A DNA stretch of 64,000 nt, from the NCBI GenBank assembly GCA_040755995.1, contig JBFMAF010000049.1, positions 128,001 to 192,000 on the forward strand, in the 5' to 3' direction. The stretch is from Acidobacteriota bacterium (GTDB lineage Bacteria; Acidobacteriota; CAIWXX01). The notes under the pieces were generated by a model that was given only the letters and a program-made list of their open reading frames with translations, did not search any database and was not told where the DNA came from. A program made the position numbers and the translations under genes. This document shows, piece by piece, positions 19,792-52,003 of the stretch (positions are counted from its first letter, which is position 1; the number at the start of each line of letters is the position of its first letter).

Positions 19792-19820
19792 TTGACATTA
19801 TCATAGTCGGCTGGTATGGT
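19792..19820 (+). promoter_or_regulatory. putative sigma70 promoter of the N2O-respiration operon
   Basis: TTGACA-17nt-TATGGT with an extended TG motif. Confidence 0.6.
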
Positions 19821-19939: not shown

Positions 19940-21862
19940 ATGCGCCTCTATAGAGCTGAGATTCCTGACTGCAAGTACTGGCAGAAGCGCGTGCTCTGCC
20001 AGGTGGGCTGCCCCGTGTCGACCGATGCCGGCCGATACGTACAGCTCATCGCCGAAGGCCGCATCAAGGATGCGTATCTGACGGCGCGCTCGCCGAATCC
20101 GCTGGCCTCAGTCTGCGGCCGCGTGTGCGCCGCACCGTGCGAAGACCGCTGCCGGCGGGGATTCATCGACGCGCCGATCTCGATCCGCGCCCTCAAACGA
20201 TTCCTGTGCGAGCGCTACGGGGCGGAGAGCAGCCGGCCGGACACCGTGAACGAGCTGTTCGGAAACGCTTACGAGCCTGGCAACAAGTATCCCTGGCACA
20301 TACCGCTGATGACTCGATCCGGCAGCGGCCGCCGCGTAGCCGTCATCGGCGCAGGGCCGGCCGGCCTGGCCTGCGCCCACGATCTTGCGCTGATGGGCTA
20401 CAAGGTCACGCTCTTCGAATCGGCCGAGACGCTCGGCGGCATGCTCCGTCTCGGCATCCCCGAGTACCGGCTGCCGCGATCCGTCATCGAGATGGAGATC
20501 GCCGAGATCGTGGCGCTCGGCGTCGAGCTCAAGACGTCTCACCCGGTCGGCCCGGACTTCGGCCTGGCCGCCCTCCGCCGCGCCGGACATGAGGCGGTTT
20601 TCATCGGAGTCGGTGTCCAGCGCGGGCGCGGTTTGAGCGTCCCGGGTGTCGAGCTCGACGGCGTCGTCAAGGCCATCGACTTCCTTCTCAATGTCAATCG
20701 CGGCTATCGGATGAGGTTGGGATCGAAGGTCCTGGTGATCGGCGGCGGCTTCGTCGCATTCGATGCGGCCCGCATGGCGCTGCGCGAGATCTCGCTCGAA
20801 GACGCCGGCCAGGGCCTCTCGGGCGGCGGCGACCTCGCCGCAGCTCTCGACTCCGCCCGCGTAGCGCTCCGCACCGGCGCCGGCGAAGTGCACATGGCCT
20901 CGCTCGAGGCCTTTGACGAAATGCCCGTCATGAAAACCTTCCAGGGGAAGGACGAATTCGAACAGGCGACTCGCGAGGGTATAACATTCCACCCGAGACG
21001 GGGCCCGCTGCGTTTCGAGGGCGATCGCGTGATCCGGCGCGCCGTGCTGCAACGCGTCACACGCGTGTTCGACGAGACCGGGAGATTCAGCCCCGAATAC
21101 GACCCGCGCGAGACCGAGACCTTCGAGGTCGACGCCGTCATTCTGGCGATTGGACAGATGGCCGACCTCTCGTTCATCCGTCCGGAGGACGGCATCGCGC
21201 TGACGGCCGGCGGCACCATTAAGGTCGATGCCGGCAGCATGGCCACCTCGGCTCCGGGGATCTACGCCGGGGGCGACGTGGCCTTCGGTCCGAGGATCCT
21301 CATCGACGCGGTCGCCAACGGCAAGCGGGCCGCACAGTCGATCAGGGAATACCTGGATCCGGGCGCGCCGAGAATCGACGTGATGTTCAGGATCGAGCAG
21401 CTCCAGACGAGCACCTACAGGATGCCCGAGGAGTATGAGATCGCGGAGCGATCGGCTCCGCCGTCGCTCCCACTCGACCGCCGCACCGGGATCTCCGAGG
21501 TGGAGCTCGGCTATGGCGAGGCCGAGGCGAAGCGGCAGGCTGAGCGATGCCTGACATGCCACGTGAACACGATCTACGACGCCGAGAAGTGCGTCCTCTG
21601 CAACCGCTGCGTCGACATCTGTCCGGAGGACTGCTTGAAGCTGGTCCCGCTCTCGAAGGTGGAGCTCCAGTCTGAGCTCGAGCCGGAGATTCTGGAGAGC
21701 TATGCGCTGGCCGAGGGCGAGACGGCCAGCGTGATGCTGAAGGACGATACCAGGTGCATCCGCTGCGGGCTGTGCGCGATACGGTGCCCGACGAGTGCCT
21801 GGACAATGGAGAGGATGTACTTCGAGGAGAAGGCCCGTCCGGTGACGGCGAAGGAGGCTTAG
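19940..21862 (+). CDS. cytoplasmic FAD/NAD(P)-dependent iron-sulfur oxidoreductase (GltD/NfnB/DsrL-like) with C-terminal 2x[4Fe-4S] ferredoxin
   Basis: CQVGCP, CGRVCAAPCEDRC, GAGPAG, GIPEYRL, GGGFVAFD, AGGDV, ERCLTC, CVLCNRCVDICP, CIRCGLCAIRCP; no signal peptide. Confidence 0.9.
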   Translation: MRLYRAEIPDCKYWQKRVLCQVGCPVSTDAGRYVQLIAEGRIKDAYLTARSPNPLASVCGRVCAAPCEDRCRRGFIDAPISIRALKRFLCERYGAESSRPDTVNELFGNAYEPGNKYPWHIPLMTRSGSGRRVAVIGAGPAGLACAHDLALMGYKVTLFESAETLGGMLRLGIPEYRLPRSVIEMEIAEIVALGVELKTSHPVGPDFGLAALRRAGHEAVFIGVGVQRGRGLSVPGVELDGVVKAIDFLLNVNRGYRMRLGSKVLVIGGGFVAFDAARMALREISLEDAGQGLSGGGDLAAALDSARVALRTGAGEVHMASLEAFDEMPVMKTFQGKDEFEQATREGITFHPRRGPLRFEGDRVIRRAVLQRVTRVFDETGRFSPEYDPRETETFEVDAVILAIGQMADLSFIRPEDGIALTAGGTIKVDAGSMATSAPGIYAGGDVAFGPRILIDAVANGKRAAQSIREYLDPGAPRIDVMFRIEQLQTSTYRMPEEYEIAERSAPPSLPLDRRTGISEVELGYGEAEAKRQAERCLTCHVNTIYDAEKCVLCNRCVDICPEDCLKLVPLSKVELQSELEPEILESYALAEGETASVMLKDDTRCIRCGLCAIRCPTSAWTMERMYFEEKARPVTAKEA

Positions 21863-21864
21863 AG

Positions 21865-22380
21865 GTGGGGACAGGAGGAACTGAAACGGTCAGCCGCCGG
21901 GGTTTCCTCGGGAAAGCGGCGGTGGCGGCGGTTGCCGGAGGAATTCTGGCCCAGGGCATGTACTACCTGCGCGCGCTTGTGCCGAACGTGCTCTACGAGC
22001 GCCCACTGCGGTCCAAGGTCGGCCCTCCCGATCAGTTCGCAGATGGGACGACGTTTGTCGAGGAGCAGCAGGTGTTCGTGGTGAAGGAGGGCCGCTCGTT
22101 CTACGCGATGTCCGCCGTCTGCACGCACCTCGGATGCACCGTCAAGGCGGTGACACTGAACCAGCCGAAATTCATCGACGAGGCGGGTAAGCGAGTAGAG
22201 ATCAGGAGTGAATTCCACTGCCCGTGCCACGGCTCCAGATTCTACGGCGACGGGCGGAACTACGCCGGCCCGGCCCCCCGCCCGCTCGACCGCTTCAAGA
22301 TCACGCGTTCCCCGGACGATGGACAGCTGATCGTGGACCAGGGCGAGCGTGTCGGTGCCGACTACCGGTTGACGGTGTGA
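21865..22380 (+). CDS. Rieske [2Fe-2S] subunit of a Rieske/cytochrome b complex
   Basis: GTG 21865 after SD AAGGAGG; Tat motif SRRGFLG plus TM helix; CTHLGC and CPCHGS; GPAPRPL. Confidence 0.92.
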   Translation: MGTGGTETVSRRGFLGKAAVAAVAGGILAQGMYYLRALVPNVLYERPLRSKVGPPDQFADGTTFVEEQQVFVVKEGRSFYAMSAVCTHLGCTVKAVTLNQPKFIDEAGKRVEIRSEFHCPCHGSRFYGDGRNYAGPAPRPLDRFKITRSPDDGQLIVDQGERVGADYRLTV

Positions 22381-22458
22381 GCGTGAGGACCAGGGTGCGA
22401 AAGCGGCCGTAATCCGGCGGGTCACAAACGACCGGCGATCCACCTGCAAAGGAACGAT

Positions 22459-23781
22459 ATGGCAAGAAGCATTGCGGAGCGTTTCAAGGCGATGTGGCGG
22501 CAATCCACGTGGACGTGGCAGCCGCGGAGCGAGCGCGAGGCGGGAGACGCCGTCGTCCGAAATCTTCTCCTTCATTGGTTCCCGTCCAAGGTCCATCGCA
22601 TGTCGATCGCGTGGAGCACCTCGATGTACCTGGGCGTCATCTCGGCCTACCTCTTCCTTATCCTCATTCTGACCGGGCTGGGTCTCATGTTTCTGTACGT
22701 CCCCTCGGTCGAACGGGCCTACGCGTCGGTCAAGGACATCGAATTCGCGGTCTCGTTCGGGACAGTCCTGAGGGGACAGCACCGCATGGCGGCGCATCTC
22801 ATGGTGGCCGTCGTGTTCGTTCACATGGCGCGGGTCTTCTTCACAGGAGCGTACCGGTCGGCCACGGCGGCCAACGGCAATCGGGAGCTCAACTGGATCG
22901 TCGGCGTGTTCATGCTGCTGACCACACTGTTTCTTTCCTTCACCGGCTACCTGCTTCCATGGGACCAGCTGGCGTACTGGGCGATCACCGTCGGCACCAA
23001 CATCGCGCGGGCCGCGCCGCTGCTGGGCGAGCAGATGCGCTACCTGCTGCTCGGCGGAAACACAATCGACCAGAACGCGCTGCTTCGTTTCTACGTCCTG
23101 CACTGCATCTTTCTGCCGGCCGCACTCCTGCTGATGTTCTCGTACCACATGTGGCGGATCCGCAAGGACGGCGGCATGGCCGTCGTGGACCGCCTGGCCG
23201 TGCTCGAGCAGGCGGCGCCTGTGAAGACCAAGTCCTACACGCTGATGGGCATAGCGAAGGGGACGACCGTGCAGGTGGAGACCTCGGTCGTCGACGAGGA
23301 GAAAGACTGCCTGAGCTCCTCGCCGCACCTGTTGAGGAGGCTCGTGGCGGTGTTCGCCGCGACGCTGGCCGTGGTCACGGCCCTGGCGATCTTCGTTCCG
23401 GCGCCGCTCGAGACGCCCGCCGATCCCGGGTTGACGCCGAACCCGGCCAAGGCGCCGTGGTATTTCCTGTGGCTCCAGGAACTGGTCGCCGACACGACGT
23501 TCAAGGTGGGCGGCTTCACCGTCGACGGCGCGCTCGTCGGCGGAATCGTCCTCCCGGGGCTGCTGGTCGCGTTGTTGCTCGTCTGGCCGTACCTCGACCG
23601 CTCGCCCAAGGAGGCAGTGGGCTGTTGGTTCCATTCGACACGTAGTGTGCAGAACATCGTCTTCGCCGTCTCGGTCATCCTGCTTCTTGTCTTCCTGATC
23701 ATCGGCACGTTCATGCGCGGCCCATACTGGAACTTCTACTGGCCCTGGGAGAGCTGGCCCGGGATCCCGGCGAAGATATAG
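22459..23781 (+). CDS. cytochrome b (fused b6-like + subunit IV-like)
   Basis: Heme His pairs QHRMAAHLMVAVVFVH and LHCIFLPAALLLMFSYH; RELNWIVG, FTGYLLPWDQ, PNPAKAPWYF. Confidence 0.92.
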   Translation: MARSIAERFKAMWRQSTWTWQPRSEREAGDAVVRNLLLHWFPSKVHRMSIAWSTSMYLGVISAYLFLILILTGLGLMFLYVPSVERAYASVKDIEFAVSFGTVLRGQHRMAAHLMVAVVFVHMARVFFTGAYRSATAANGNRELNWIVGVFMLLTTLFLSFTGYLLPWDQLAYWAITVGTNIARAAPLLGEQMRYLLLGGNTIDQNALLRFYVLHCIFLPAALLLMFSYHMWRIRKDGGMAVVDRLAVLEQAAPVKTKSYTLMGIAKGTTVQVETSVVDEEKDCLSSSPHLLRRLVAVFAATLAVVTALAIFVPAPLETPADPGLTPNPAKAPWYFLWLQELVADTTFKVGGFTVDGALVGGIVLPGLLVALLLVWPYLDRSPKEAVGCWFHSTRSVQNIVFAVSVILLLVFLIIGTFMRGPYWNFYWPWESWPGIPAKI

Positions 23782-23796
23782 GCAGCGAGGACAGGC

Positions 23797-25020
23797 ATGT
23801 TGGACAAGACAGAACTCGAGAAGCTGCGCAGGCGAGATCAGCTGCTGGTGCTCGCAACGGCGCTGGTGTTGTTGGCGCTGACCGTGTTGCCGTATGGGGA
23901 GATCGCAACGGAAGAGTGGCGCCTGGATCAGTCGGATTTCCGCGACGTGGTGCTGGAGAAGTTCGGCCCGGAGCGCGCGGAGGAGGTGCCGAGCGGGATC
24001 CAGCAGATCTGGGTCAAGGAGCTGGGGCGCACAGACCGCTGCGTGACATGCCACTTGGGAGTGGAGTGGAAAGGGCTCGAGACTGCCGACGAACCCTTCC
24101 GCACGCATTCGCAGCGCGTGCTGGCGAAGCACCCGGTGGCCAGGTATGGGTGCACGGTCTGCCACGGAGGGCAGGGATGGGCTACCGGCGCGGACGAGGC
24201 GCACGGCTACACTGAATTCTGGGAAGAACAGTTGTTGTCTGCCTCGACGGCGGAAATGCATCTGATCAAGCAGAAGAGCGCGCTCATCGAGATGCGCTGC
24301 AACATCTGCCACCGCTACGACCGGCAGACCGAAGGGATGCCGTACGTCAACAAGGCCAGGGCGCTGGTCGTCGAAAAGGGCTGCCGCGCGTGCCATCTGA
24401 TCAACGGGCGGGGAGGCGTGCTGGGGCCCGACCTCGCGCACGAAGGCGACAAGCCGGCCGAGCAGTTCGACTATTCACGCCTCGGCGGCACTCCGTCGGT
24501 GTTCGAGTGGCACGTGGCGCACTTCAAGCAGCCGAAGTCCATGTCACCGGACACGATCATGCCCGATTTCCACTTCGGCAGCGAGGAGGCCCAGGCCCTG
24601 ACCATACTGGTCATGAGCTGGCAGCGGACGGATATCCCACTCTCGTTCATGCCCGGCGCGGTGAAGCGAGACGAGCCCACTGCGGAGGAGATCGAGACCG
24701 AGAGGGCGATGACAAGCGGGCCCGGGGCCTGGTTCGTGAAGAACAAGTGCTTTGTCTGCCACGCCGTCACCGTGTTCGGCATTCCGCAGACCACGGGTAT
24801 CGGTCCTGATCTCTCCAACGCCTGGGAGGACGCGCAGAAGCGATTCGGGCGGACGCTCGAAGATTTCCTCATGAAACCATCCGGCACGATGGACGTCGTC
24901 CTTTCGAGGCAGATCATCCTGACCGAGGCACAGAAGAAAGAGGCCATCGCTCTACTCAAGCAGGCATACGATCAGTACCTTCTCAACAAGGCGACGCAGG
25001 AAGGCACTGTCAGCAAGTAG
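23797..25020 (+). CDS. membrane-anchored pentaheme c-type cytochrome
   Basis: N-terminal TM helix; five CxxCH motifs (CVTCH, CTVCH, CNICH, CRACH, CFVCH). Confidence 0.9.
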   Translation: MLDKTELEKLRRRDQLLVLATALVLLALTVLPYGEIATEEWRLDQSDFRDVVLEKFGPERAEEVPSGIQQIWVKELGRTDRCVTCHLGVEWKGLETADEPFRTHSQRVLAKHPVARYGCTVCHGGQGWATGADEAHGYTEFWEEQLLSASTAEMHLIKQKSALIEMRCNICHRYDRQTEGMPYVNKARALVVEKGCRACHLINGRGGVLGPDLAHEGDKPAEQFDYSRLGGTPSVFEWHVAHFKQPKSMSPDTIMPDFHFGSEEAQALTILVMSWQRTDIPLSFMPGAVKRDEPTAEEIETERAMTSGPGAWFVKNKCFVCHAVTVFGIPQTTGIGPDLSNAWEDAQKRFGRTLEDFLMKPSGTMDVVLSRQIILTEAQKKEAIALLKQAYDQYLLNKATQEGTVSK

Positions 25021-25055
25021 CAAACGAAAGAAAACATCATCAGCAAGGAGGTACG

Positions 25056-26909
25056 ATGATCAGAAGACGCACAGGTCTCCTCTGGGGGGCCGTGATTCTC
25101 GGGCTGGCCGCTCTCGTGAGCATTTCGTCATGCGGGAGACCGGAGAGGCGCAAGCCGGCCGCCGCGCGATCCGACGTGGAAGAGGCGGCCCTGAAGACCT
25201 ACGTTCCACCCGGAGACCTCGACGAGTACTACATCTTCTACTCCGGCGGGCACTCGGGCAACGTATACATCGGAGGCCTCCCGTCGATGCGCCACATCTC
25301 GACCATTCCGGTCTTCGCGCCGTATCCGGCGACCGGCTACGGCTTCGACGAGGAGTCCAAGGCGATGCTCGGAAGCTTCACCTGGGGAGATGCGCACCAC
25401 CCGGCCTTGAGCGAGACCAACGGCGACTACGACGGCCGCTGGCTCTTCATCAACGACAACGCCAACAACCGCATCGCGCGGATCGACCTGCGCGACTTCA
25501 AGACCAGGCAGATTTTCGGGCCCATCCCCAACGTGTCCGGTAATCACGGGTCCTCCTTTGTGACGCCGAACACCGAGTACGCGCTCTACGCATCGCGATT
25601 CTCCGTGCCGATACCGAAAGGCACCTACGCGTCGATCAACGACTACGGGACGAAATTCAGCGGTGTGGTCGGCGCTCTGGCCATCGATCCGCAGACCGGT
25701 GCCATGAGCAATGGATGGCAGATCAAAATGCCGCCCTTCGACTTCGACCTGGGCGATGCCGGCAAGGGCGCAAGCGATGGATACGCGTTCTGGACATGCT
25801 ACAACACCGAGCGAGCCACGGGGAAACTCGAGGTGACGGCCTCCCAGCGCGAGCGCGACTACATCGCGATGGTCGACTGGAAGGCCGCCGCCCAGGCGGT
25901 CAAGGACGGGAAGACGAAGGATATCGGCGGAGTCCCGGTGATCGATCCGGCCGAGACCAAGGGGCTCGTGTGGCTGCTGCCTTGCGGCAAGAGCCCGCAC
26001 GGCGTAGATGTGAGCCCCGACGGCAAGTACATCGTCGGAAGCGGCAAGCTGCAGGCGGCCGTGACGGTCTTCAATATCGACAAGATCAAGGTTGCGATCC
26101 AGAACAAGGACTTCGAGGGCGAGGAAGACGGCATCCCGGTGCTCAAGTTCGACGCGATCAAGGACGCCGAGGTAGCAGTCGGCCTGGGACCGCTTCACAC
26201 CCAGTTCGACGACAAGGGCTATGCCTACACCAGCCTCTTCCTCGACAGCGCCGTCAGCAAGTGGAAGCTAGGCACGTGGGAGCCACTCGACAAGGTCAAC
26301 GTCCAGATCAATATCGGTCACCTGCTGGTTGTCGAAGGCGATACGGCCCACCCCGTGGGCAAGTTCTGTATCGCGATGAACAAGCTCTCCCACGGGCAGC
26401 ACCTGAATGTGGGCCCGTCGCAGCCCGAGACCTCGCAGCTCATCGACATCGAAGGCGACAAGATGCGACTGATCTACACCGCGTTCACCGAGCCCGAGCC
26501 CCACTACGCGCAGGCCATCACCGCGACAAGGCTCAAGCCGATCGAGGTCTATCTGAAAGAAGAGTCCAAGAATCCAAACGCGATCTGGGACACCAAGGAC
26601 GCGTCGGTCACGAGGTCCGGGAACAACGTGACGGTGAAGATGGTGGCGGTGCGGAGCAGCTTCGAGCCCACGGCCATCGAGGTCAACCGCGGCGACACAG
26701 TCACGATCTACCTGACCAACATCGAGCAGACCACCGACGAGCTTCACGGGTTCGGTCTCTGCGAGTACAACATCAACGTGGTCATAGATCCCGGCGAGAC
26801 GAAGACCATCAAGTTCGTGGCGAACAAGCCCGGCGTCTACCCGTACTACTGCACCAACTTCTGTTCGGCGTTGCACCAGGAGATGCAGGGGTACTTGCTC
26901 GTCAAGTAG
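25056..26909 (+). CDS. nosZ: nitrous-oxide reductase, clade II (Sec/lipoprotein type)
   Basis: SGGHSG; CuZ His motifs DAHH, GNHG, SPHG, GPLH, NIGH, EPH; CuA DELHGF...YCTNFCSALHQEM; lipobox-like VSISSC; no C-terminal heme domain. Confidence 0.96.
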   Translation: MIRRRTGLLWGAVILGLAALVSISSCGRPERRKPAAARSDVEEAALKTYVPPGDLDEYYIFYSGGHSGNVYIGGLPSMRHISTIPVFAPYPATGYGFDEESKAMLGSFTWGDAHHPALSETNGDYDGRWLFINDNANNRIARIDLRDFKTRQIFGPIPNVSGNHGSSFVTPNTEYALYASRFSVPIPKGTYASINDYGTKFSGVVGALAIDPQTGAMSNGWQIKMPPFDFDLGDAGKGASDGYAFWTCYNTERATGKLEVTASQRERDYIAMVDWKAAAQAVKDGKTKDIGGVPVIDPAETKGLVWLLPCGKSPHGVDVSPDGKYIVGSGKLQAAVTVFNIDKIKVAIQNKDFEGEEDGIPVLKFDAIKDAEVAVGLGPLHTQFDDKGYAYTSLFLDSAVSKWKLGTWEPLDKVNVQINIGHLLVVEGDTAHPVGKFCIAMNKLSHGQHLNVGPSQPETSQLIDIEGDKMRLIYTAFTEPEPHYAQAITATRLKPIEVYLKEESKNPNAIWDTKDASVTRSGNNVTVKMVAVRSSFEPTAIEVNRGDTVTIYLTNIEQTTDELHGFGLCEYNINVVIDPGETKTIKFVANKPGVYPYYCTNFCSALHQEMQGYLLVK

Positions 26910-26984
26910 AGCCGTCCCTGACGGCGCTCGCGCCCGGAGAGACCCGGGCGCGGGTGCCGGACGGGCACGGCGAAGGAGGACCAG

Positions 26985-27629
26985 ATGCGGCGATTGTTGA
27001 ACCGGGCGAATGCCTTCTTTGACTCGCCGATCGACCTGAGAAGCAGGCTCGTCGTTCTTCTCTCGACGTCGGCGCTGCTCCTGCCTACGTTTCTCTTCCC
27101 GCTGTGGCAGCTGGAGATGTATGCGAACCAATATCCGGACGGACTGCGGTTGTCCATTTACTCATACAAGCTTGCAGCCGGCAATAATGGCAACGACCTG
27201 CGCGAGATCAATACACTCAATCACTACATCGGGATGAGGGCTCTGGAGCCCCAGGACTTTTTCGAGCTCAAGTGGCTGCCCTTTGCGGTAGGGCTGTTTT
27301 TCTTCCTGGGACTGCGCGTCGTGGTGCTCGGCAAGGTTTCCAAGCTGGTGGACCTGTGCGTGCTGTTCGTCTATTTCGGGCTGTTCTCGCTCTGGAGCTT
27401 CGGCTACCGGATGTACGCCTACGGGCACACGCTGGACCCGATGGCGGCGGTCAAGATCCAGCCGTTCACGCCCCCGCTCTTCGGCCACGAGACGCTCGCG
27501 AACTTCGAGGTCTACAGCTTCCCGGGCGTGGCCGCCTACCTGCTCCTCGCTTACCCATTCTGCCTCGGGTTGGCGCTCTTCCTCTCATACCGGACCTTCC
27601 GTTCGGCCGAACGGACAGTCACAATTTGA
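26985..27629 (+). CDS. nosB: NosB-like membrane protein of clade II nos clusters
   Basis: PLW...ANQYPDGL...INTLNHYIGM and YGHTLDP motifs; directly after nosZ. Confidence 0.85.
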   Translation: MRRLLNRANAFFDSPIDLRSRLVVLLSTSALLLPTFLFPLWQLEMYANQYPDGLRLSIYSYKLAAGNNGNDLREINTLNHYIGMRALEPQDFFELKWLPFAVGLFFFLGLRVVVLGKVSKLVDLCVLFVYFGLFSLWSFGYRMYAYGHTLDPMAAVKIQPFTPPLFGHETLANFEVYSFPGVAAYLLLAYPFCLGLALFLSYRTFRSAERTVTI

Positions 27630-27703
27630 GGAAGGGGCAACCGAGCAGGCGGAATGTGAGCGCGGTCGAAGCGTCCCGCGGTTGTCGGCGTGGAAGGGTC
27701 GAC

Positions 27704-29074
27704 ATGAGAAGTGGAGAGGTGGTAGCCGGGATCGTGCTGCTTTACTACATATGTAGTAGTCCTGCGCAGCCGGGCGAGATCCGAGTACCGCAGCAGGCGC
27801 CGACGATTCGGCAGGCCCTGGCCATCGCGCAGCCCGGCGACTGCATCCGCGTCCACGGCGGTACTTACGCCGGCAATCTGATCCTGAGCAAGCCGGTCAT
27901 GCTGCATGGCGAGCACCAGCCGGTCATACGCGGCGATGGCGCGGGCTCGGTCGTCACGGTGGATGCGGATGGGTGCACCCTGCGCGGCTTCCTGATCGAA
28001 CGCTCGGGGACGGGGATGGCCCTGAGCGACGCAGGCATCTGCCTCCGGTCCTCGGGCAACACGATTCAGGGCAACCGCATCGAGAACTGCCTCTTCGGGA
28101 TGTATCTCGACCGGGCCGGCTCCAACCGCATCCAGGACAACGATATCCAGGGGATGCGTGAGAGGGAGATCGGCGAGCGAGGCAGCGGGATACACCTCTA
28201 CGACAGCCATAACAACTCGATCGAGGGCAACACAGTGGCCGACGCGCGCGACGGGATCTACTTCGATCACGCCAACTGGAACTGCGTCCGCTGGTGTTCC
28301 TTCACCGCCTCGCGCTACGGCGTCCATTACATGTCATCCGACGACAATACCTTCACAGGAAACCGATTCGCCGGGTGCATGGCCGGAGCCACCATCATGT
28401 TCTCACGGCGGCTGCTCTTCGACGGCAACTGGTTCGTTCAGAACCGCGGTTTCTCTTCGGTTGGGGCGCTGCTCAAGGATTGTTACGACACCACCGCAGT
28501 CAACAATCTCTTCGCAGACAACAGCACCGGCATGCTGCTCGACAACTCCATGAACAACTCCTTCCGCCGCAACGAGATCCTCCGCAACGACGTCGCGCTC
28601 TACCTCTTCAGTGGATCCGACGCCAACGTCTTCGCCGAAAACAATTTCCGAGAAAACCTGAGCCCGATCAGGCTCCTCGGCAAACGGTCCACGACGCGCT
28701 GGTCGGCAGACGGGCGCGGGAACTACTGGAGCGACTACGAGGGGTATGACATGGACGGCGACGGCATCGGAGACGTGCCGCACAAGATTCAGAACGTCTT
28801 CGAATTTCTGGAAAGCGAGCATCCGCCACTGCGGTTCTTCCTGGTCTCCCCGGTGGCCGCCGCGATGAAAGCCGGCGAAGACGCGTTTCCGATGTTCGAG
28901 TTCAGTCGCGAAGTCGACACGGCACCGCTCATGCACCCCGTCGACATCTCCTACGGATCGCGATGGCGGATAGCCGCGGACACGACGCTGCGGCTGCCCG
29001 TGACCGCGGGCCTTGCCGGAATGAGCGTGTGCCTCGCCTTCGCGGCCGGCAGCCGCCGGATTCGACGGCGTTGA
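27704..29074 (+). CDS. nosD: nitrous-oxide reductase maturation protein (CASH beta-helix)
   Basis: RDGIY, RYGVHYM, GNYWSDY.GYD.DGDGIGDVP; start ATG 27704. Confidence 0.92.
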   Translation: MRSGEVVAGIVLLYYICSSPAQPGEIRVPQQAPTIRQALAIAQPGDCIRVHGGTYAGNLILSKPVMLHGEHQPVIRGDGAGSVVTVDADGCTLRGFLIERSGTGMALSDAGICLRSSGNTIQGNRIENCLFGMYLDRAGSNRIQDNDIQGMREREIGERGSGIHLYDSHNNSIEGNTVADARDGIYFDHANWNCVRWCSFTASRYGVHYMSSDDNTFTGNRFAGCMAGATIMFSRRLLFDGNWFVQNRGFSSVGALLKDCYDTTAVNNLFADNSTGMLLDNSMNNSFRRNEILRNDVALYLFSGSDANVFAENNFRENLSPIRLLGKRSTTRWSADGRGNYWSDYEGYDMDGDGIGDVPHKIQNVFEFLESEHPPLRFFLVSPVAAAMKAGEDAFPMFEFSREVDTAPLMHPVDISYGSRWRIAADTTLRLPVTAGLAGMSVCLAFAAGSRRIRRR

Positions 29075-29099
29075 TCCCACGATCGGGAGCCGCAGGAGC

Positions 29100-30008
29100 A
29101 TGATCAAGATCGAGCGTTTCTCTAAGGCGTATGGCGACGTCCGCGCAGTCGACGGCCTGACGCTCGCGGTCGAGAAGGGGAGGATCACCGCGCTCCTCGG
29201 CCCCAACGGAAGCGGGAAGTCGACAACGCTCAAGGCAGCCGTGGGACTGGTCAAGCCGTCCTCGGGCCGCATAGTCGTCGACGGGTTCGATGTCGTGACC
29301 GAACGCCAGGCGGCTCTGTCGCGCATCAGCTTCCTGCCGCAGCGCATTCGCTTCCCCGAGTCGCTGAGCGGGCGGGAGGTTCTGCGATTCTACGCGCGCC
29401 TGCGCGGGCTGCCCGGGGACTCCGCGGCGGCAGCCGCCGCTACGACAGGGCTCGACGGCGCCCTCGATCGTCCCGTCGGCGAGTACTCCGGCGGAATGCT
29501 CCAGCGCCTGGGACTGGCGGTTCTCTCGCTGCCGAACGCCCCCGTCCTCCTCCTCGACGAACCGACGGCGGGGCTGGACCCGGCCGGCAGCCGCGCCTTC
29601 CGTGACTGGCTGCAGACCCAGCGCGACGAGGGCAAGACGGTCCTCCTCACCACGCACCGGCTGGAGGACGCCGAGGACCTCGCCGACCAGGTGGCCATCT
29701 TGGTCCGCGGGAAACTCGTTGCAGACATGACACCGGCCGAGGTACGACGGCGCGAGGCCGTCGAGGTGTGGCTCAGGATCATCAACTGGAACGTGCGGTA
29801 CCAGCAGCTTGCGCAGGCGCTCGGCGCCGAGACGCTCTGCGCAGATCCCGGAGGAGACTACGTGTTCGCCGCGCCGGCCGCGCGGGCGGTCGAAATCATG
29901 AACGTGCTGCGTGACGAGGGGGCCGAGATTCTCAGATTCACATCGCGATCCTCCCTCGAGACCTTCTACCACCACATCACGAACGAGGAGCGGTATGAGA
30001 GCAGTTGA
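29100..30008 (+). CDS. nosF: ABC transporter ATP-binding protein NosF
   Basis: GPNGSGKST, YSGGMLQR, LDEPTAGLD; located between nosD and nosL/nosY. Confidence 0.88.
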   Translation: MIKIERFSKAYGDVRAVDGLTLAVEKGRITALLGPNGSGKSTTLKAAVGLVKPSSGRIVVDGFDVVTERQAALSRISFLPQRIRFPESLSGREVLRFYARLRGLPGDSAAAAAATTGLDGALDRPVGEYSGGMLQRLGLAVLSLPNAPVLLLDEPTAGLDPAGSRAFRDWLQTQRDEGKTVLLTTHRLEDAEDLADQVAILVRGKLVADMTPAEVRRREAVEVWLRIINWNVRYQQLAQALGAETLCADPGGDYVFAAPAARAVEIMNVLRDEGAEILRFTSRSSLETFYHHITNEERYESS

Positions 30009-30498
30009 CAGTTGCCAGTTGTCGGTTGTCAGTTGTCAGTTGGCAGTTGTGAGCCGGCGCCTCGCCGGGGCAAGACGCCTGGTATTCGGCATCGTGCTCG
30101 CCGTATGTGCCTTCGCCGGGGCCTGCGGCGGGAGTGCGCCGCAACCGGATCCCATACGTCCCGCAGAGGACTCCTGTGCGTCGTGCCGGATGCAAATATC
30201 TCAGCCGAAATACGCAGCCGAGATACTGGCGCCGGACGGGCAGTACCTGAAGTTCGACGACATCGGCTGCTTCCGCTTCTACCTGCAGGCCAATTCGAAT
30301 CTACAGAACGCGCCGTGCTGGGTGATGGACTTCGAGAACGGACAATGGGTCGAGGCACGCAAGGCCTACTATGCGATCGACACCAAGGAAGTCACTCCGA
30401 TGGGCTCCAACATCCTAGCCTCCTCCACCTCCGACCGCGCCCGAGCGCAGGCCGCCCGCGTCGTCACGTACGAGGAGATGATGGCCGCGGGCAAGTGA
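29995..30498 (+). CDS. nosL: copper chaperone lipoprotein NosL
   Basis: Lipobox AFAGAC, CASCRM, FDDIGC, TPMG. Start is either ATG 29995 or GTG near 30049. Confidence 0.88.
   Translation: MRAVDSCQLSVVSCQLAVVSRRLAGARRLVFGIVLAVCAFAGACGGSAPQPDPIRPAEDSCASCRMQISQPKYAAEILAPDGQYLKFDDIGCFRFYLQANSNLQNAPCWVMDFENGQWVEARKAYYAIDTKEVTPMGSNILASSTSDRARAQAARVVTYEEMMAAGK
30001..30051. repeat. heptamer tandem array (CAGTTGN)x7
   Basis: gcagttgacagttgccagttgtcggttgtcagttgtcagttggcagttgtg. Confidence 0.85.
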
Positions 30499-30671
30499 GA
30501 ATCGGAGAATCGGAGAATCGGAGAAACGGAGAAGCGGGGAATCGGGGAAACGGAGACACGGAGACGGGGAGAGACGGAGACGGGGAGACGTGGACGGGGA
30601 GATCGGGGAGAAGATGAGCACGGAGCATCGAGCAACCGAAACCGGGAACCGGGAACCGGGAACCGAGAACC
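30497..30671. repeat. octamer (GAATCGGA/GAGACGGG-like) and heptamer (GAACCGG) tandem arrays between nosL and nosY
   Basis: gagaatcggagaatcggagaatcggagaaacggaga... followed by aaccgaaaccgggaaccgggaaccgggaaccgagaacc. Confidence 0.85.
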
Positions 30672-30675
30672 ATTC

Positions 30676-31506
30676 ATGATGGCACGCGCTGTTTACGTGG
30701 TTGCGGCGCAGGAGTTCGTCGTGCTGCTCCGCACGCGATGGGTCGGTGGGTTCAGTGTGCTGTTTCTCGTTCTGGTGAGCGGCTTCGCCTGGTTCGGCAC
30801 GGCCAACCTAGGCATTGCCGGCATCCAGGACTTCTCGCGCACGACCGTGAGCCTGGTCAATCTCGTTTGCGCTCTGGCGCCGCTGATGGCGCTCCTGATG
30901 GGTGTCTATGGGTTCACGATCGAGCCGGGGTCCGAGGAGCTGTTGTTCAGCCAGCCGGTCAGTCGAGTAGCCATCCTTGTGGGGAAAGCCTTGGGCCTGT
31001 GCGCAACCCTGTGCCTGTCGACGCTGATCGGCTTCTGCGCAGCCGGGGCCGTCGTTTCATATCGAGTGGGGACGGCTGGGTTGGGACGGTACCTGCTGTT
31101 CATCGGATTGACGCTGCTGCTCCAGGCGGCCTTCGTCTCAGTGGCCCTCCTGATATCGAGCTTCTTCCAGCACCGGCTGCGCGCAATCGCCGCCGGGCTC
31201 GGGACTTGGTTCTTCTTTGTCTTCCTCTACGATCTGCTGGTCATCGGCTCGACTCTGGGGCTGAAGGGGCGCCTATTCCAGCAGGCGCTGTTCATTTCCG
31301 TCTTCTTCAATCCCGTCGACCTTGTTCGCGTGAGTCAACTGGTGGCGCTCAACGGGGCGTCCTTCTTCGGGCCCGCAGGCGCCGCCTGGGTCCGCTTCTG
31401 CGGCGGCGATCTGAGCCTGGTGCTTCTGATCGGCGGAGCCGTTCTGCTCTGGACCATCCTCCCGGCCTGGGCCGGCCTGATCGCATATGACCGGCGCGAC
31501 ATGTGA
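30676..31506 (+). CDS. nosY: ABC transporter permease NosY
   Basis: Six TM segments; RTTVSLVNL, ELLFSQPVSR..GK, FNPVDLVR. Confidence 0.88.
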   Translation: MMARAVYVVAAQEFVVLLRTRWVGGFSVLFLVLVSGFAWFGTANLGIAGIQDFSRTTVSLVNLVCALAPLMALLMGVYGFTIEPGSEELLFSQPVSRVAILVGKALGLCATLCLSTLIGFCAAGAVVSYRVGTAGLGRYLLFIGLTLLLQAAFVSVALLISSFFQHRLRAIAAGLGTWFFFVFLYDLLVIGSTLGLKGRLFQQALFISVFFNPVDLVRVSQLVALNGASFFGPAGAAWVRFCGGDLSLVLLIGGAVLLWTILPAWAGLIAYDRRDM

Positions 31507-42094: not shown

Positions 42095-43450
42095 ATGTAC
42101 GACGCCGCGGTGATCGGTGCCGGGATATCCGGGCTTTCGGCCGCATGCCGAATCCTCTCCGCCGGCCTGTCTGTGGCGGTGTTCGAGTCGGAGAGCTCCC
42201 CCGGCGGCAACATGCGTACGGCACGCGAGAGTGGCTATCTGCTCGAACGCGGTCCGCACAGCTTCCTGGGATCGAGCCGGGCCATCTGGAAGTTGCTTGC
42301 AGACGTCTCGTTTCTGGACGCCGTGCAGCCAGCCACCCCGGCCGCGCGATACCGGTATATCTATCGCGACGGGCGCCTGCATGCGCTTCCTATGAGCCCG
42401 ATGCAGTTCATCACGACGCGGCTGCTCGGCACGCGCGCCAAGCTGAGGCTCCTGGCGGAGCCCCTCGTGCCCGGCAAGGCATCACCGGAGGACACCGTCG
42501 AGACGTTTTTCGCACGGCGGTTCGGAAGAGAGGCCGCCACCTACATCACCGGACCCTTCGTCTCCGGCATATACGCAGGCGATCCGTCGCAACTCGGCGC
42601 GGCCGACAGCTTCCCGGTCTTCTGGGAGCTCGAGTCGACCTCCGGCAGCCTTGTGCTCGGCGGCCTCCGCCTGATGATCGGCCGCCGCAAGAACGGCGAC
42701 GGGCCCCGCCGACACGGCCTGTTCAGCTTCGGAGGCGGATTGGGCGACCTCATGCATCATCTCGCATCGCGCCTCGGACCGGCTCTCCACCTGAACACAC
42801 CGGTCCAATCGCTCGCGCAGGACGGCCGGTCCTGGCGCGTGATCTGCGAGCAAGACGTCCGCGCCCGCGCGGTCGTCGTGACGGCACCGCCTTACGAGGC
42901 TGCCAGGATGATCCCGGGCGATCTCGCAGTGCTGCTAGGCAGCATGCCGTTCGTTCCGGTCGCGGTCGTGCATCTCGGATCCCCGAGGCCGGTCGAAGGT
43001 GTGCCCAGGGGATTCGGTTTCCTGATCCCTCGCCACTACGGTATCCGCACGCTCGGCACCGTCCTTGTCTCGCAGCTGTTCCACGGCCGAGCCCCGGGTG
43101 ACGGCACTCTGCTCACCTCCTTCCTCGGCGGTGCATTCGACCGCACTGTCCTGGACCTCTCCGATGACGAGCTTGTCTCGATTGCGCGTGAAGACTTCAG
43201 GCGAATCACGGGCGTGAGTTTTCCTGAGGACTTCGCGCGGGTCGTGCGGCATCCGCGCGCGATCCCACAGCTCGAGGTTGGCCACAGGAAGAAGGTCACC
43301 GAGATCCACAGACTGGCAGCCGGGACCCCAGGCCTCTTCTTCGCGGGCAACTACCTGCGGGGCGTCGGCATGAACGATGCGGCGGCCAGCGGGTACGCCG
43401 CCGCGGAGTCCGCCGTCCGATACCTGTCGGAATCGCAAGATCATGGTTAG
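42095..43450 (+). CDS. hemY: protoporphyrinogen/coproporphyrinogen oxidase, HemY family
   Basis: IGAGISGL, ERGPHS, SGIYAGD, GFGFLIP, AIPQ..VGH, AGNY..GVG. Confidence 0.92.
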   Translation: MYDAAVIGAGISGLSAACRILSAGLSVAVFESESSPGGNMRTARESGYLLERGPHSFLGSSRAIWKLLADVSFLDAVQPATPAARYRYIYRDGRLHALPMSPMQFITTRLLGTRAKLRLLAEPLVPGKASPEDTVETFFARRFGREAATYITGPFVSGIYAGDPSQLGAADSFPVFWELESTSGSLVLGGLRLMIGRRKNGDGPRRHGLFSFGGGLGDLMHHLASRLGPALHLNTPVQSLAQDGRSWRVICEQDVRARAVVVTAPPYEAARMIPGDLAVLLGSMPFVPVAVVHLGSPRPVEGVPRGFGFLIPRHYGIRTLGTVLVSQLFHGRAPGDGTLLTSFLGGAFDRTVLDLSDDELVSIAREDFRRITGVSFPEDFARVVRHPRAIPQLEVGHRKKVTEIHRLAAGTPGLFFAGNYLRGVGMNDAAASGYAAAESAVRYLSESQDHG

Positions 43451-44657
43451 GAAGCGGGCCACAACGCCGCCTGCGGAGGTTCCAATCGGGCTGGTGGGGT
43501 GCGATTTCAGGGTGGCTTCAAGCCGCTGGCGGTCGGCCCTCGTGATGTCGAAAGAGGAACGCATCAAGATGGCCGCTGATCTCGTGAAGAGCGGCATGGT
43601 GATGGGCATGGCGTTCCTGGATACGTGCAATCGCAACGAGATTCTGTACGCCGCGGAGAAGCCCGCCTGGACTGGAGAGATCATCAAGGCGCAGATGATG
43701 AAGCGCTGGCACGGCATGAACGGCCAGCCGCCCAGGCCCTACGTGATGGTGGGCAATGACGCTACGCGTCATGTCCTCCGGGTAGCCGCCGGCCTCGAAT
43801 CGTTCGTGGTGGGCGAGAGGCAGATCACAACGCAGCTCAATCGCGCGCTCGAACGGTCGCGAAAGGAGGGGATGTCGAGCGTACATCTCAACGGCCTGGG
43901 GGCGATCGCGGCGCGCGTGGCGAGGGACGTCCGCCGGCGCGCGCCGCTGGGGAACGTTGTGCGGGGAGTCCACGAGGTGGCGGCTCGCTACATCCTGCGG
44001 CACGTGAAACCGCCGGCCACGGTGGTGGTCATTGGCACCGGAGAGATCGGCAGGCGCGTCGTCGGCGCGATCAGGCCGATGCCCAGGTTCAAGGTGTATT
44101 CCATGAACCGGACGGTGCTGCGGGGCGGAGGCCGCGTGCTGCCGCTCACGGAGCTCCCGCATACGAGGGCCGACGTGATCGTAGCATGCACCGCGGCCCT
44201 GAACCCGGTCGTCACCAAAGCCAACCTGCCGCCGGGTCGCCGAGCTCCTGCGCAGCCGCTCCTTCTGATCGACCTCGGCATTCCCGCGCAGATAGACAGT
44301 CGAGTGGCGGGCATGCCGGCCGTGGTCCGCGTGGATCTGGACAACCTGCTCGCCGAGGAACGTCTCGACCCGATCGCCGCCGAGAGACTCGGTGCAGCGT
44401 CGAGCATCACGGAGGATGGGCTGTACGAGTATGCCCAGTTCTGCCAGCGCAGGCGCTTCGTCACCCTGCTGGATGCGACTCGCAAGAGGCACGAAGAGTT
44501 CATTTCGAAACGCGTCCCGGATATGCTCGACCAGGTGCTTCCCGATGCGGACCGCGAAACGAGGGGCCAGATCGAGTATCAGCTCCGCGGCCTCATCCGC
44601 CAGTACACCAACTCCATCTTCCGCTCGATCAACGAGTCGTTGGCGGAGGAGCAATGA
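43443..44657 (+). CDS. hemA: glutamyl-tRNA reductase (divergent)
   Basis: DTCNRNE catalytic Cys, GLESFVVGERQI, IGTGEIG, NRT, IDLGIP; ATG 43443 overlaps the end of hemY. Confidence 0.85.
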   Translation: MVRKRATTPPAEVPIGLVGCDFRVASSRWRSALVMSKEERIKMAADLVKSGMVMGMAFLDTCNRNEILYAAEKPAWTGEIIKAQMMKRWHGMNGQPPRPYVMVGNDATRHVLRVAAGLESFVVGERQITTQLNRALERSRKEGMSSVHLNGLGAIAARVARDVRRRAPLGNVVRGVHEVAARYILRHVKPPATVVVIGTGEIGRRVVGAIRPMPRFKVYSMNRTVLRGGGRVLPLTELPHTRADVIVACTAALNPVVTKANLPPGRRAPAQPLLLIDLGIPAQIDSRVAGMPAVVRVDLDNLLAEERLDPIAAERLGAASSITEDGLYEYAQFCQRRRFVTLLDATRKRHEEFISKRVPDMLDQVLPDADRETRGQIEYQLRGLIRQYTNSIFRSINESLAEEQ

Positions 44658-44680
44658 GGGCCGGACGCGCGGCGGCGTAG

Positions 44681-45631
44681 ATGGTGGACCCGCAACGACG
44701 AGTGCTGAGGATCGGGACGCGCGGGAGCGCCCTGGCTCTGTGGCAGGCCCGTCACGTGGCAGACTTGATCGCGGCCCCAACCGAGCTCAAGATCATCACC
44801 ACCTCGGGCGATCGCTTCATCGACGCCTCGCCCACGGGGCGGCTGGAAGAGGGGTTCTTCACGAAGGAGATCGAGGACAAACTGCTGGCCGGTGAAATCG
44901 ACCTCGCTGTGCACTCGCTCAAGGACCTGCCCACGAGACTCTCCGACGGACTGGCGCTCGGCGCCGTGAGCGCTCGAGCCGCAGTGAGCGACATGCTGCT
45001 GGTACACCCGGAGTGGGTGGACGGAGCCGCCCGATTGCCGGTGAGAGCGGGAGGCCGTGTCGGAGCGTCTTCGTTGAGACGGCAGTCCATGGTTCGCACA
45101 TTCGGCGAAGGCCTGGAACCGGCGCAGCTCCGCGGCAACGTTCCCACTCGCGTTGAGAAGTGCCGCCGCGGCGAATACGCAGCCGTGATCGTGGCCTCGG
45201 CTGGAATCAAGCGGCTGGATCTGGACCTTTCGGGCCTGGCGACATTCGAGCTACTTCCGCAAGTGTGGATCCCGGCCCCAGGTCAAGCCGTGCTGGGTGT
45301 CGAGATCCGCGAGGACGACCAGGAAGCTCGCGGCGCAGTGGCCGCCGTGGATCACGCGGAAAGCCGGCAGTGCGCGCGGATCGAACGTGAGCTGCTCCAC
45401 CGTTTCGAAGGAGGCTGCCACGAGGCATTCGGTGCCTGGGCCTCGCGAGAAGGGCCACGGTTGGTAGTCAGGCTGGGCCATGAGGATTCTCTCGGACGGT
45501 GGCGATCGGTGGTCGTGGCAGGCGAGGACGAGGCACGGCTCACCGAGGCCGCCTTTGCAGAGTTGCGCCGCGAGATGTCGTCGGAGCCGCGCCGGAGCGA
45601 AGCCGAGGCGATCTGCCGAAGACTATTCTGA
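44681..45631 (+). CDS. hemC: hydroxymethylbilane synthase
   Basis: IGTRGSALALWQA, FTKEIE, AVHSLKDLP, SSLRR, LRGNVPTR, EGGC. Confidence 0.95.
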   Translation: MVDPQRRVLRIGTRGSALALWQARHVADLIAAPTELKIITTSGDRFIDASPTGRLEEGFFTKEIEDKLLAGEIDLAVHSLKDLPTRLSDGLALGAVSARAAVSDMLLVHPEWVDGAARLPVRAGGRVGASSLRRQSMVRTFGEGLEPAQLRGNVPTRVEKCRRGEYAAVIVASAGIKRLDLDLSGLATFELLPQVWIPAPGQAVLGVEIREDDQEARGAVAAVDHAESRQCARIERELLHRFEGGCHEAFGAWASREGPRLVVRLGHEDSLGRWRSVVVAGEDEARLTEAAFAELRREMSSEPRRSEAEAICRRLF

Positions 45632-48564: not shown

Positions 48565-49618
48565 TCGAGTTCCCTCTTTCTCCCATTCGGATCACGTCAG
48601 TGAGTCGCAGGGCGATGGTGCCGACCGGGAGGACCGAGTCGGCGTATCCCGCGGCGATTGCGGCACTGGGCATGCCAAAGACCACGGAGCTGCCTTCATC
48701 CTGTACGATGACCATCCCACCCGCGGAGCGAACGGCCGTGAGTCCCTCGAGCCCATCCTGCCCCATCCCGGTCAAGACGACTGCGATCGCGCCGCGGCCG
48801 AAGGCCCTGGCTACGGATTGGAAGAGGAATGTAGCAGACGGTCGAAAGCCGCCGATGGGAGGCGCGCCGGAGAGCTCGATGGTGCGTCCCCCCGCGGACA
48901 GACCCAGATGCCGGTCGTCGGGTGCGATGTAGACGGTGGACGGGTTAAGCGATTCCCCGTTCTCCGCCACCCTCACCCTGAGCGGGGAGGCGTCGTTCAA
49001 CCACCGTGCCAGTCCTTCCACGAAACCGATCGAAATGTGCTGGACCACGAGAATCGGTGCACCGAAGTTGCCTGGGAGGGCGGTGAGGATCTGGTTCAGG
49101 GCCACCGGCCCACCCGTGGATGCGGCCACCGCCACGATACCCGCTCGCACGCTCTGCTCGGTGATCCGCGCGGGGAACGGAGATCGCGGCAGGGTCCGGT
49201 CCGGCCACCGGCGCACGACCTTCACCTGCGACATCGCCTTCACGGTCTGGACGAATCGGCGCGCTGTCTCCTCGAAGCCAGGTGAGTCGACTCCGGAGGG
49301 CTTCGCGAGGACAGTCAAGGCCCCCGCGCGCAGCGCATGCATTGACACTTCGACTTCACGGGCCCGGGTGCTCCCCGAGACGATGACAATGGGGACCGGC
49401 GACTCCACCATGATCCGCTTCGTGGCCTCCAATCCGTCCATCACCGGCATCTGGATGTCCATGGTGATCACCGTGGGCTTGAGCGCCCTTGCCATCTCGA
49501 CCGCCTCGGCTCCGTTCTTGGCTTCGCCGACGACCTCAATCTCGCGGTCCGATCGCAGGACTTCGGCCAGCAGCTCACGAGTGGTGCTGGAGTCCTCGGC
49601 TATCAGCACACGAATCAT
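48542..49618 (-). CDS. cheB: chemotaxis methylesterase CheB (REC + methylesterase)
   Basis: MIRVLIAEDS start; ASTGGP, VQH, TGMGQDG, VFGMP. Confidence 0.93.
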   Translation of the reverse strand: MIRVLIAEDSSTTRELLAEVLRSDREIEVVGEAKNGAEAVEMARALKPTVITMDIQMPVMDGLEATKRIMVESPVPIVIVSGSTRAREVEVSMHALRAGALTVLAKPSGVDSPGFEETARRFVQTVKAMSQVKVVRRWPDRTLPRSPFPARITEQSVRAGIVAVAASTGGPVALNQILTALPGNFGAPILVVQHISIGFVEGLARWLNDASPLRVRVAENGESLNPSTVYIAPDDRHLGLSAGGRTIELSGAPPIGGFRPSATFLFQSVARAFGRGAIAVVLTGMGQDGLEGLTAVRSAGGMVIVQDEGSSVVFGMPSAAIAAGYADSVLPVGTIALRLTDVIRMGERGNSNESSTNH

Positions 49619-49718
49619 AAGCGGTCCCCTCAGCTCCTTAGAGGGAGCCTTGTACCTGGTCGTGACCCGGTAGCGATGCGGCTTCGCGTATTCCAATCAC
49701 GCCGGTCCTCCTCAGCAT

Positions 49719-51956: not shown

Positions 51957-52003
51957 AGCTCGCGGGACTCAGGCCGCCGTCGGGACTTGGATCATCTCCG
52001 CCC

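Follow-up and report, generated by a model that had tools for sequence, protein, structure and literature searches.

A four-gene module encoding an iron-sulfur (FeS) flavoprotein, a Rieske protein, a cytochrome b (cyt b) and a pentaheme cytochrome c (cyt c) stands before the clade II nitrous oxide reductase gene nosZ in Acidobacteriota bacterium (CAIWXX01; GCA_040755995.1). The cluster lies in a stretch of 64,000 nt (contig JBFMAF010000049.1, positions 128,001-192,000), called the window below, whose own coordinates are used throughout. Across related genomes, the module accompanies one subtype of NosZ and is not a general feature of clade II, and it is likely the electron donor for this one large subtype. 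By its gene content and signature residues, it is a variant of the uncharacterised Rieske/cyt b complexes that carry an APWY motif and an NAD(P) oxidoreductase, as in the anammox complexes Kustd1480-85 and Kuste4569-74. The best reading, on which our judgement is evenly balanced, is that quinol oxidation would split electrons, one passing to NosZ and one to NAD+.

A sequence-only reading of this DNA had described ten co-oriented genes between 19940 and 31506, and checks of the open reading frames (ORFs) and profile searches returned the same ten, all on the + strand and with the identities claimed. The genes and their nearby signals are as follows.

19792..19820, + strand: sigma70-like promoter match, TTGACA-17-TATGGT with a TG extension, 119 nt 5' of the first gene
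19940..21862, + strand: predicted cytoplasmic FAD/NAD(H) iron-sulfur flavoprotein, 640 aa, with a GltD/NfnB-like core (Fer4_20, Pyr_redox_2) and a C-terminal 2x[4Fe-4S] domain
21851..21857, + strand: Shine-Dalgarno sequence AAGGAGG of the Rieske gene, within the flavoprotein gene and 7 nt 5' of the Rieske GTG
21865..22380, + strand: Rieske [2Fe-2S] protein, with GTG start, Tat-like SRRGFL anchor and Ser124/Phe126 signature
22459..23781, + strand: cyt b, fused b6 and subunit IV, with 7 hydrophobic segments, His108/122/215/230 and APWY
23797..25020, + strand: membrane-anchored pentaheme cyt c, with 5 CxxCH motifs
25056..26909, + strand: nosZ, clade II (Sec-type) nitrous oxide reductase (TIGR04246), with a lipoprotein-like signal
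26985..27629, + strand: nosB-like membrane protein, without a family match in the profile searches and named from its place behind nosZ and the presence of four hydrophobic segments; kept in related loci
27704..29074, + strand: nosD (TIGR04247, 394 against a cut-off of 300)
29100..30008, + strand: nosF ABC ATPase, a generic ABC match named by context
29995..30498, + strand: nosL copper chaperone (PF05573)
30676..31506, + strand: nosY ABC permease (PF12679, a generic ABC match), named by context

The intergenic gaps are, in gene order, 2, 78, 15, 35, 75, 74, 25, -14 and 177 nt, a spacing from which we infer that the ten genes are co-transcribed. The 2-nt gap between the flavoprotein and Rieske genes, and the AAGGAGG at 21851-21857 inside the former, are real, as had been claimed. 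The sigma70-like match is weak, since 2 such sites occur in 12.4 kb against 1.5 expected by chance, and no FNR/CRP-like site was found 5' of the cluster at up to 2 mismatches.

The conservation of this arrangement was followed from both ends. A flavoprotein-first scan of species genomes gave 83 loci, the best 80 of which, nearly all titled Acidobacteriota, were considered; the counts take only loci with enough downstream DNA (eight loci ending within 600 nt were set aside) and are not independent, as the loci are kin. Where 600 nt or more of downstream sequence is available, a Rieske gene lies 3' of the flavoprotein gene (71 of 72 loci), the exception (L055) having no Rieske match. Rieske and cyt b follow in 68/69 loci, the four module genes stand in order in 65/65, and nosZ, B, D, F and Y come after the module in 42/43. 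The proposal had been staked on the flavoprotein being conserved beside Rieske, cyt b, pentaheme and nosZ, and such conservation was found in 61 of 62 informative loci, in which nosZ follows the four genes; the one without it is L085. Chance adjacency was rejected on the same count.

The complementary search, starting from nosZ, ties the module to one NosZ subtype, since most genomes with a close nosZ carried it and the examined ones with a distant nosZ did not show it. In the organism's own phylum, nosZ was found in 27 of 300 other genomes, 14 of them at 62% identity or above, and 11 of these 14 have the flavoprotein gene co-oriented with nosZ and some 5 kb 5' of it (in the 7 loci fetched, the intervening genes were verified). 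The remaining three lack the module. Two of them have an azurin-like gene (below cut-off) before nosZ, the layout described for Luteitalea pratensis (PMC13122619), and the third has a similar ORF. Among the 13 genomes with a more distant nosZ, the 11 loci fetched showed no module genes, three of these contigs ending less than 3 kb upstream. A second phylum sample, centred on a 'delta proteobacterium' record, had nosZ in 48/251 genomes. In all 13 with NosZ at 66% identity or above, among them the centre, the flavoprotein gene stands some 5 kb before nosZ; the ten-gene order was seen in 7 fetched loci and in L026. Of the genomes with distant nosZ, the 34 published ones gave no match to the flavoprotein at E 1e-110, and a single unpublished one was excluded. 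The ten-gene block also stands on three genome-sized single contigs (G364, G457 and G429); thus closed genomes, probably from isolates, carry it.

These data bear on the view that the module is a general respiratory complex, placed before nosZ by co-regulation or co-transfer, with NosZ fed by alternative complex III (ACIII) or soluble cytochromes. Besides a heme-copper oxidase in an ACIII-like cluster, the host does have three further Rieske/cyt b loci, and one relative (L085) has the module without nosZ. Nevertheless, the gene order is kept in the two phylum samples at about 55-70% identity, only 35 nt separate the pentaheme gene from nosZ, and flavoprotein clades correspond to partner enzymes, as described below. 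We regard this view as improbable.

The wider family shows that the terminal partner is exchanged between clades. Among 83 flavoprotein matches listed, 12 were nos-linked, and 46 of the other 71 were examined. Fifteen of these 46 loci have the order flavoprotein, Rieske, cyt b and multiheme cytochrome, followed by a molybdoenzyme that starts with a twin-arginine-like sequence and has as its best PDB match the alpha subunit of nitrite oxidoreductase (NXR; 7b04, E 3e-252, one protein tested). A beta and further subunits accompany the molybdoenzyme in such NXR/Nar-type loci (L093, L097, L145, L148-L155, L157-L160, L187). In another ten, the flavoprotein sits in a cbb3 oxidase cluster, and all seven of these loci that were extended have Rieske, cyt b and multiheme c genes upstream of ccoN-like/ccoO-like genes, 4-7 kb from the flavoprotein (L161-L167, in the order Rieske, cyt b, multiheme c, ccoN-like, ccoO-like, small genes, flavoprotein, ccoG-like and heavy-metal ATPase-like). 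The multiheme cytochrome has seven CxxCH in the four of them listed gene by gene. By gene content, these loci are an oxygen-linked version of the module. The four module genes occur without a recognised partner in 20 of the 46, and L137 has the flavoprotein and Rieske genes alone. A split-cyt b version with octaheme and monoheme cytochromes, in which no terminal enzyme was recognised, is found in L122-L131; the module is preceded there by two conserved exported proteins without an NCBIfam match at 1e-8.

A quick maximum-likelihood tree of the flavoproteins (77 rows, with roughly one in three of the 80 close loci retained, no bootstrap, Kuenenia flavoproteins absent) groups the 26 nos-linked rows and L085 in one clade and the cbb3-linked ones in a separate clade (SH-aLRT 100 for each), while the NXR/Nar-linked ones fall in two places. 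An N2O-only design was rejected, as the same four genes occur with NXR/Nar-type enzymes, with cbb3 oxidase or with no recognised partner. On the evidence of these loci and their tree, the design is not specific to N2O, sister clades pairing with a periplasmic NXR/Nar-type enzyme or a cbb3 oxidase. The term 'dedicated', which the sequence-only reading had applied to N2O, therefore fits the nos-linked clade and does not fit the design. The recognised partner enzymes, acting on N2O, nitrate/nitrite or O2, all accept electrons at high potential. If the NXR-like molybdoenzymes oxidise nitrite, the module would suit reverse electron transport to NAD+.

The flavoprotein has no hydrophobic segment. 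Its conserved cysteines (six N-terminal ones, C537/C540 and those of the 2x[4Fe-4S] domain) predict four FeS clusters by motif, and its model (pLDDT 79.9) finds its best fold matches in NfnABC and StnABC. Lys86 stands at the FAD-proximal cluster in place of the NfnB Glu ligand in 78 of 80 rows, with 2 gaps. The NADP-binding YRR motif is absent in all 120 family members, and 106 have SLE or CLE instead, a type of pattern that goes with NAD(H) in DsrL-1 (PMC7596348). The motif thus points to NAD(H). With DsrL, NfnB, GltD and NfnA/StnC of Bfu-family enzymes, the flavoprotein shares an N-terminal FeS domain and FAD and NAD(P) Rossmann folds, and with DsrL also the C-terminal 2x[4Fe-4S] domain. It differs from them in its identity of only about 30-33%, in Lys for the Glu ligand and in SLE for YRR, and no dsr, nfnA or gltB partner gene adjoins it. 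The marks of DsrL are dsrAB in the host, a Glu ligand at the proximal cluster and a domain order with a linker of about 100 aa; the cluster holds no dsr gene (the host genome was not searched for dsrAB). Assignment as DsrL or as the glutamate synthase small subunit was rejected, given the lack of partner genes, the wrong ligand and the wrong motif.

The closest described systems are the Kuenenia stuttgartiensis clusters Kustd1480-1485 and Kuste4569-4574 (PMC12954380), which also combine Rieske, cyt b, multiheme c and an FeS flavoprotein. The same source reports four clusters, a Lys at the FAD-proximal one and an NfnABC-like fold for Kuste4570/Kustd1483, matching the flavoprotein here, whose proximal cluster lacks the fourth Cys and has a Lys nearby. 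The top two of 42 PDB matches of the Rieske protein, 9rk3 and 9rk4, are Kustd1480 and Kuste4569 (E 1e-22 and 3e-22, the next being 1e-13), so that the kinship with anammox complexes suggested earlier holds and these are the closest solved relatives. Both were measured, at +335 and +303 mV respectively (PMC12954380). Ser124 is kept in 68 of 72 orthologues and Tyr in 66 of 72, with Phe126 here, as in Kustd1480; this Ser/Phe or Ser/Tyr signature, common to both systems, points to a high-potential Rieske center at about or above +260 mV.

In cyt b, APWY replaces PEWY at the quinol-oxidising (Qo) motif in the subunit IV alignment, within a conserved PAKAPWY. Tyr57 aligns with b6 Cys35, the heme cN cysteine, and no CxGG occurs in 108 rows. 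Arg235 aligns with the bc1 His that follows the fourth heme ligand and that we take to be the quinone-reducing (Qi) site ligand. With no CxGG and the Qi His changed to Arg, neither the b6f nor the bc1 way of cytoplasmic-side quinone reduction is conserved, as far as the alignments tell. An extra histidine, His39, occurs in 64 of 67 rows linked to nos, in 15 of 15 linked to NXR/Nar and in 25 of 25 others. In the Kuenenia models, His43/His62 bind a predicted heme at the dimer axis (PMC12954380), and His39 may be a counterpart of theirs. An additional His in the N-terminal part, and a pair of basic residues following the fourth heme ligand, are found in the Kuenenia cyt b as well. That protein differs in being split, with a 5-helix subunit IV, whereas the protein here is fused to a 3-helix subunit IV, and in its heme cN, modelled present and Glu-ligated, whose cysteine is missing here (PMC12954380).

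The pentaheme cytochrome has an N-terminal membrane helix and invariant His104, 112 and 136 and Met255 and 365 in 109 rows, which suggests bis-His ligation for three of the hemes and His/Met ligation for the other two, in class I domains toward NosZ. A fold search with its model (pLDDT 81.8) returned nothing at E ≤0.001, with weak class I cytochrome c matches alone. It has five hemes against six or eight in the Kuenenia multiheme proteins, and its partner is NosZ instead of an octaheme protein resembling hydroxylamine oxidoreductase (HAO) (PMC12954380).

That Rieske/cyt b complexes with NAD(P)-oxidoreductase partners are known, for example in anammox bacteria, had been stated in the sequence-only reading and stands, with the addition that the pairing had already been noted in print beyond anammox: an NAD(P)-binding FeS oxidoreductase adjoins cyt b of subfamily G in many cases (Dibrova 2017, PMC5600118). 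The module shares with this subfamily, and with the APWY clade, which Kao and Hunte called uncharacterised (2014, PMC4122944), the APWY Qo motif, a Rieske signature of middling-positive to high potential and a mixed taxonomy. For Anaeromyxobacter sp. K, PMC4122944 lists an APWY cyt b of one chain that lacks a heme ci motif, together with a Rieske protein having consecutive S-Y. The cyt b here is long and without CxGG, unlike the short, oxidoreductase-linked cyt b of Dibrova (PMC5600118), a comparison made from the published text. The available parts of PMC4122944 and PMC5600118 give no link of the APWY/subfamily G group to N2O reduction, and literature searches found no paper describing a flavoprotein-bearing complex as NosZ donor, subscription reviews and figures (nos cluster maps) being outside reach. 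What the sequence comparison adds is that the module is confined to one NosZ subtype, that terminal partners change from clade to clade, and that neither known site of quinone reduction is kept.

The nos genes themselves follow clade II usage. NosZ scores 872.5 bits with the Sec-type model TIGR04246 (cut-off 625) and 465 with the Tat model, under its cut-off of 625; it has no CxxCH and hence no fused cyt c, and the membrane ORF lies 75 nt 3' of it, as in the clade II layout. The order of Sec-type nosZ, then nosB, D, F, L and Y, is shared with clade II clusters such as that of Wolinella, where a NosG-C1-C2-H and Qcr route carries electrons (PMC11096178). A supply from a Rieske/cyt bc complex, proposed here from the genes, would likewise be common to both. 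Unlike in Wolinella, NosG/NosH and a cyt c fused to NosZ are missing and an NAD(H) flavoprotein leads the cluster (PMC11096178). The earlier claim that nosR, nosG and nosH are lacking survived searches of the cluster and of the host genome, which is 99.8% complete: no NosR-type FMN_bind domain was found in it (a control matched in 4/14), no nosG or nosH ORF is among the ten cluster genes, and NapH/NosH gave no match over cut-off in the genome, with 13 weak matches and none on the nos contig. No family-aimed search was made for nosX.

From these parts, the mechanism may be outlined as follows. The first four genes would encode one membrane complex, its APWY Rieske/cyt b core bearing a pentaheme cytochrome on the periplasmic side and an FAD/FeS subunit on the cytoplasmic one; this complex would donate electrons to the NosZ encoded next to it. 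Quinol would be oxidised at the periplasmic site; one electron would pass through the high-potential Rieske protein and the pentaheme cytochrome to NosZ, and the other would cross the membrane through the two b hemes, meeting no conventional quinone-reduction site. From there it would reach the ferredoxin domain, perhaps by way of a fifth-His heme on the dimer axis, and then two further FeS clusters, FAD and NAD+; the NADH formed could re-enter through complex I. Complex formation, the extra heme, the quinone used and the direction of flow are the conjectural parts of this scheme, whose observed basis is the genes with their motifs, conservation and family context. Such a split of quinol electrons between NAD(P)+ and a high-potential acceptor was proposed, and not demonstrated, for the Kuenenia complexes (PMC12954380). 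A structure prediction of the cyt b dimer (15-316) with four hemes and the ferredoxin domain (541-635) scored 0.01 against a mark of 0.32, in a setting where the controls did not fold either.

The midpoint potentials are -74 mV for menaquinone and -320 mV for NAD. With these values, the energy balance of the split is +88 to +163 mV in the absence of a proton-motive force. Several points weigh against the split. Against a proton-motive force of 150-180 mV, the balance falls to -92 to +13 mV; the split is therefore feasible only with the Rieske branch held oxidised by N2O. Neither MenB, MqnA/D nor MqnC was found over cut-off in the host genome, despite its several quinone-dependent complexes. 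The His-to-Arg spacing in cyt b is 196 here and 204 in Kuenenia. His39 and the Arg also occur in an APWY cyt b without an adjacent flavoprotein elsewhere in the host genome (L098), so neither residue marks a flavoprotein link. L085, a Terriglobia record, carries a nos-clade module in a genome without nosZ. Finally, Kao and Hunte tie APWY complexes to reverse operation (PMC4122944). L085 also has a monoheme cytochrome gene 5' of its module, and in L098 (C46:8000-25137, the contig ending nearby) NrfC/NrfD-like and multiheme genes accompany two Rieske/cyt b sets.

The near-zero balance under a proton-motive force also speaks for the same complex run with its cytoplasmic flow reversed, from NADH through the flavoprotein and b hemes to quinone, which would make it an NADH:N2O module bypassing complex I. 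This direction is thermodynamically downhill, the NAD(H)-type motif fits it, and menaquinone reduction was proposed for the Kuenenia complexes by De Almeida et al. (cited in PMC5600118). Input from FNR/ferredoxin at b6f serves as its model. It would nevertheless require a cytoplasmic quinone-reduction site, both known versions of which are gone, and the complex I of the host, whose genes include nuoF over cut-off, would conserve more energy; the complex I argument was likewise made for anammox (PMC12954380). Of the two directions offered by the sequence-only reading, NAD+ reduction is thus favoured, and NADH input, disfavoured by the lack of a recognisable conserved quinone-reduction site and by the complex I genes, is rather unlikely.

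A further account retains an ordinary Q-cycle to NosZ by way of a non-canonical quinone site, with the flavoprotein separate or loosely bound and serving redox balancing or the assembly or activation of the copper sites. Rieske and cytochrome genes are indeed known in clade II nos clusters (PMC11096178), the cyt b of L098 has the same His and Arg without a flavoprotein next to it, and no cyt b-flavoprotein fusion was found among the 3 longer cyt b proteins matched, a weak search. The flavoprotein, however, tracks Rieske/cyt b and not nos: of 43 non-nos loci with sufficient sequence, 42 have it in one cluster with the two. Flavoprotein-Rieske junctions commonly overlap or abut, a 4-nt overlap being most frequent, and the Kuenenia subunits co-migrated (cited in PMC12954380). 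This account is unlikely in our estimate, and the split of electrons between NosZ and NAD+ is retained as the best reading.

The host looks like a non-denitrifying N2O reducer from its gene content. NrfA and NirK were not found in its genome, a NarG-like protein gave no tblastn match, and a NirS search gave none in a run whose control matched nowhere either. The genome also carries genes for complex I, a single heme-copper oxidase next to ACIII-like genes and three Rieske/cyt b loci in addition to the one described. Elsewhere in the window, heme biosynthesis genes hemA and hemC with a flavin oxidase (42095-45628) and a chemosensory cluster with two CheW, CheR, a methyl-accepting chemotaxis protein (MCP), a CheA-like protein, CheB and a hybrid kinase (46465-56260) are ordinary. 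Within the nos cluster, the first codons of nosL (30002-30050) consist of a sevenfold tandem repeat of CAGTTGT, and the nosL-nosY spacer (30497-30671) is filled with tandem repeats of 7-8 nt, namely GAGAATCG, GGAGACGG and AACCGGG units.

Clade II NosZ matters in the environment, acidobacterial nosZII ranking with the most abundant soil nosZ groups (PMC13122619). High growth yields on N2O have been reported for some clade II organisms. To our knowledge, the electron supply of clade II NosZ has been worked out for few organisms. In the broadest form of the proposal, which we put forward only tentatively, the module would be the N2O branch of a widespread class of respiratory complexes that dropped the second half of the Q-cycle, the low-potential electron going to NAD+ and the high-potential electron to the oxidant enzyme of each clade. 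If so, and with the NADH recycled by complex I, each electron pair passing from quinol to N2O would be coupled to the translocation of about 6 charges instead of about 2 by textbook stoichiometries, and the split could contribute to those high yields. The module also offers a way to approach a long-open question: can a Rieske/cyt b complex divide the electrons of quinol between NAD+ and an acceptor of high potential? PMC12954380 sees the chief obstacle to the scheme proposed for anammox in the reduction of quinone close to heme cN, and the module is a variant without the heme cN cysteine. With the usual quinone-reducing site gone, the electron-split design may be easier to test here.

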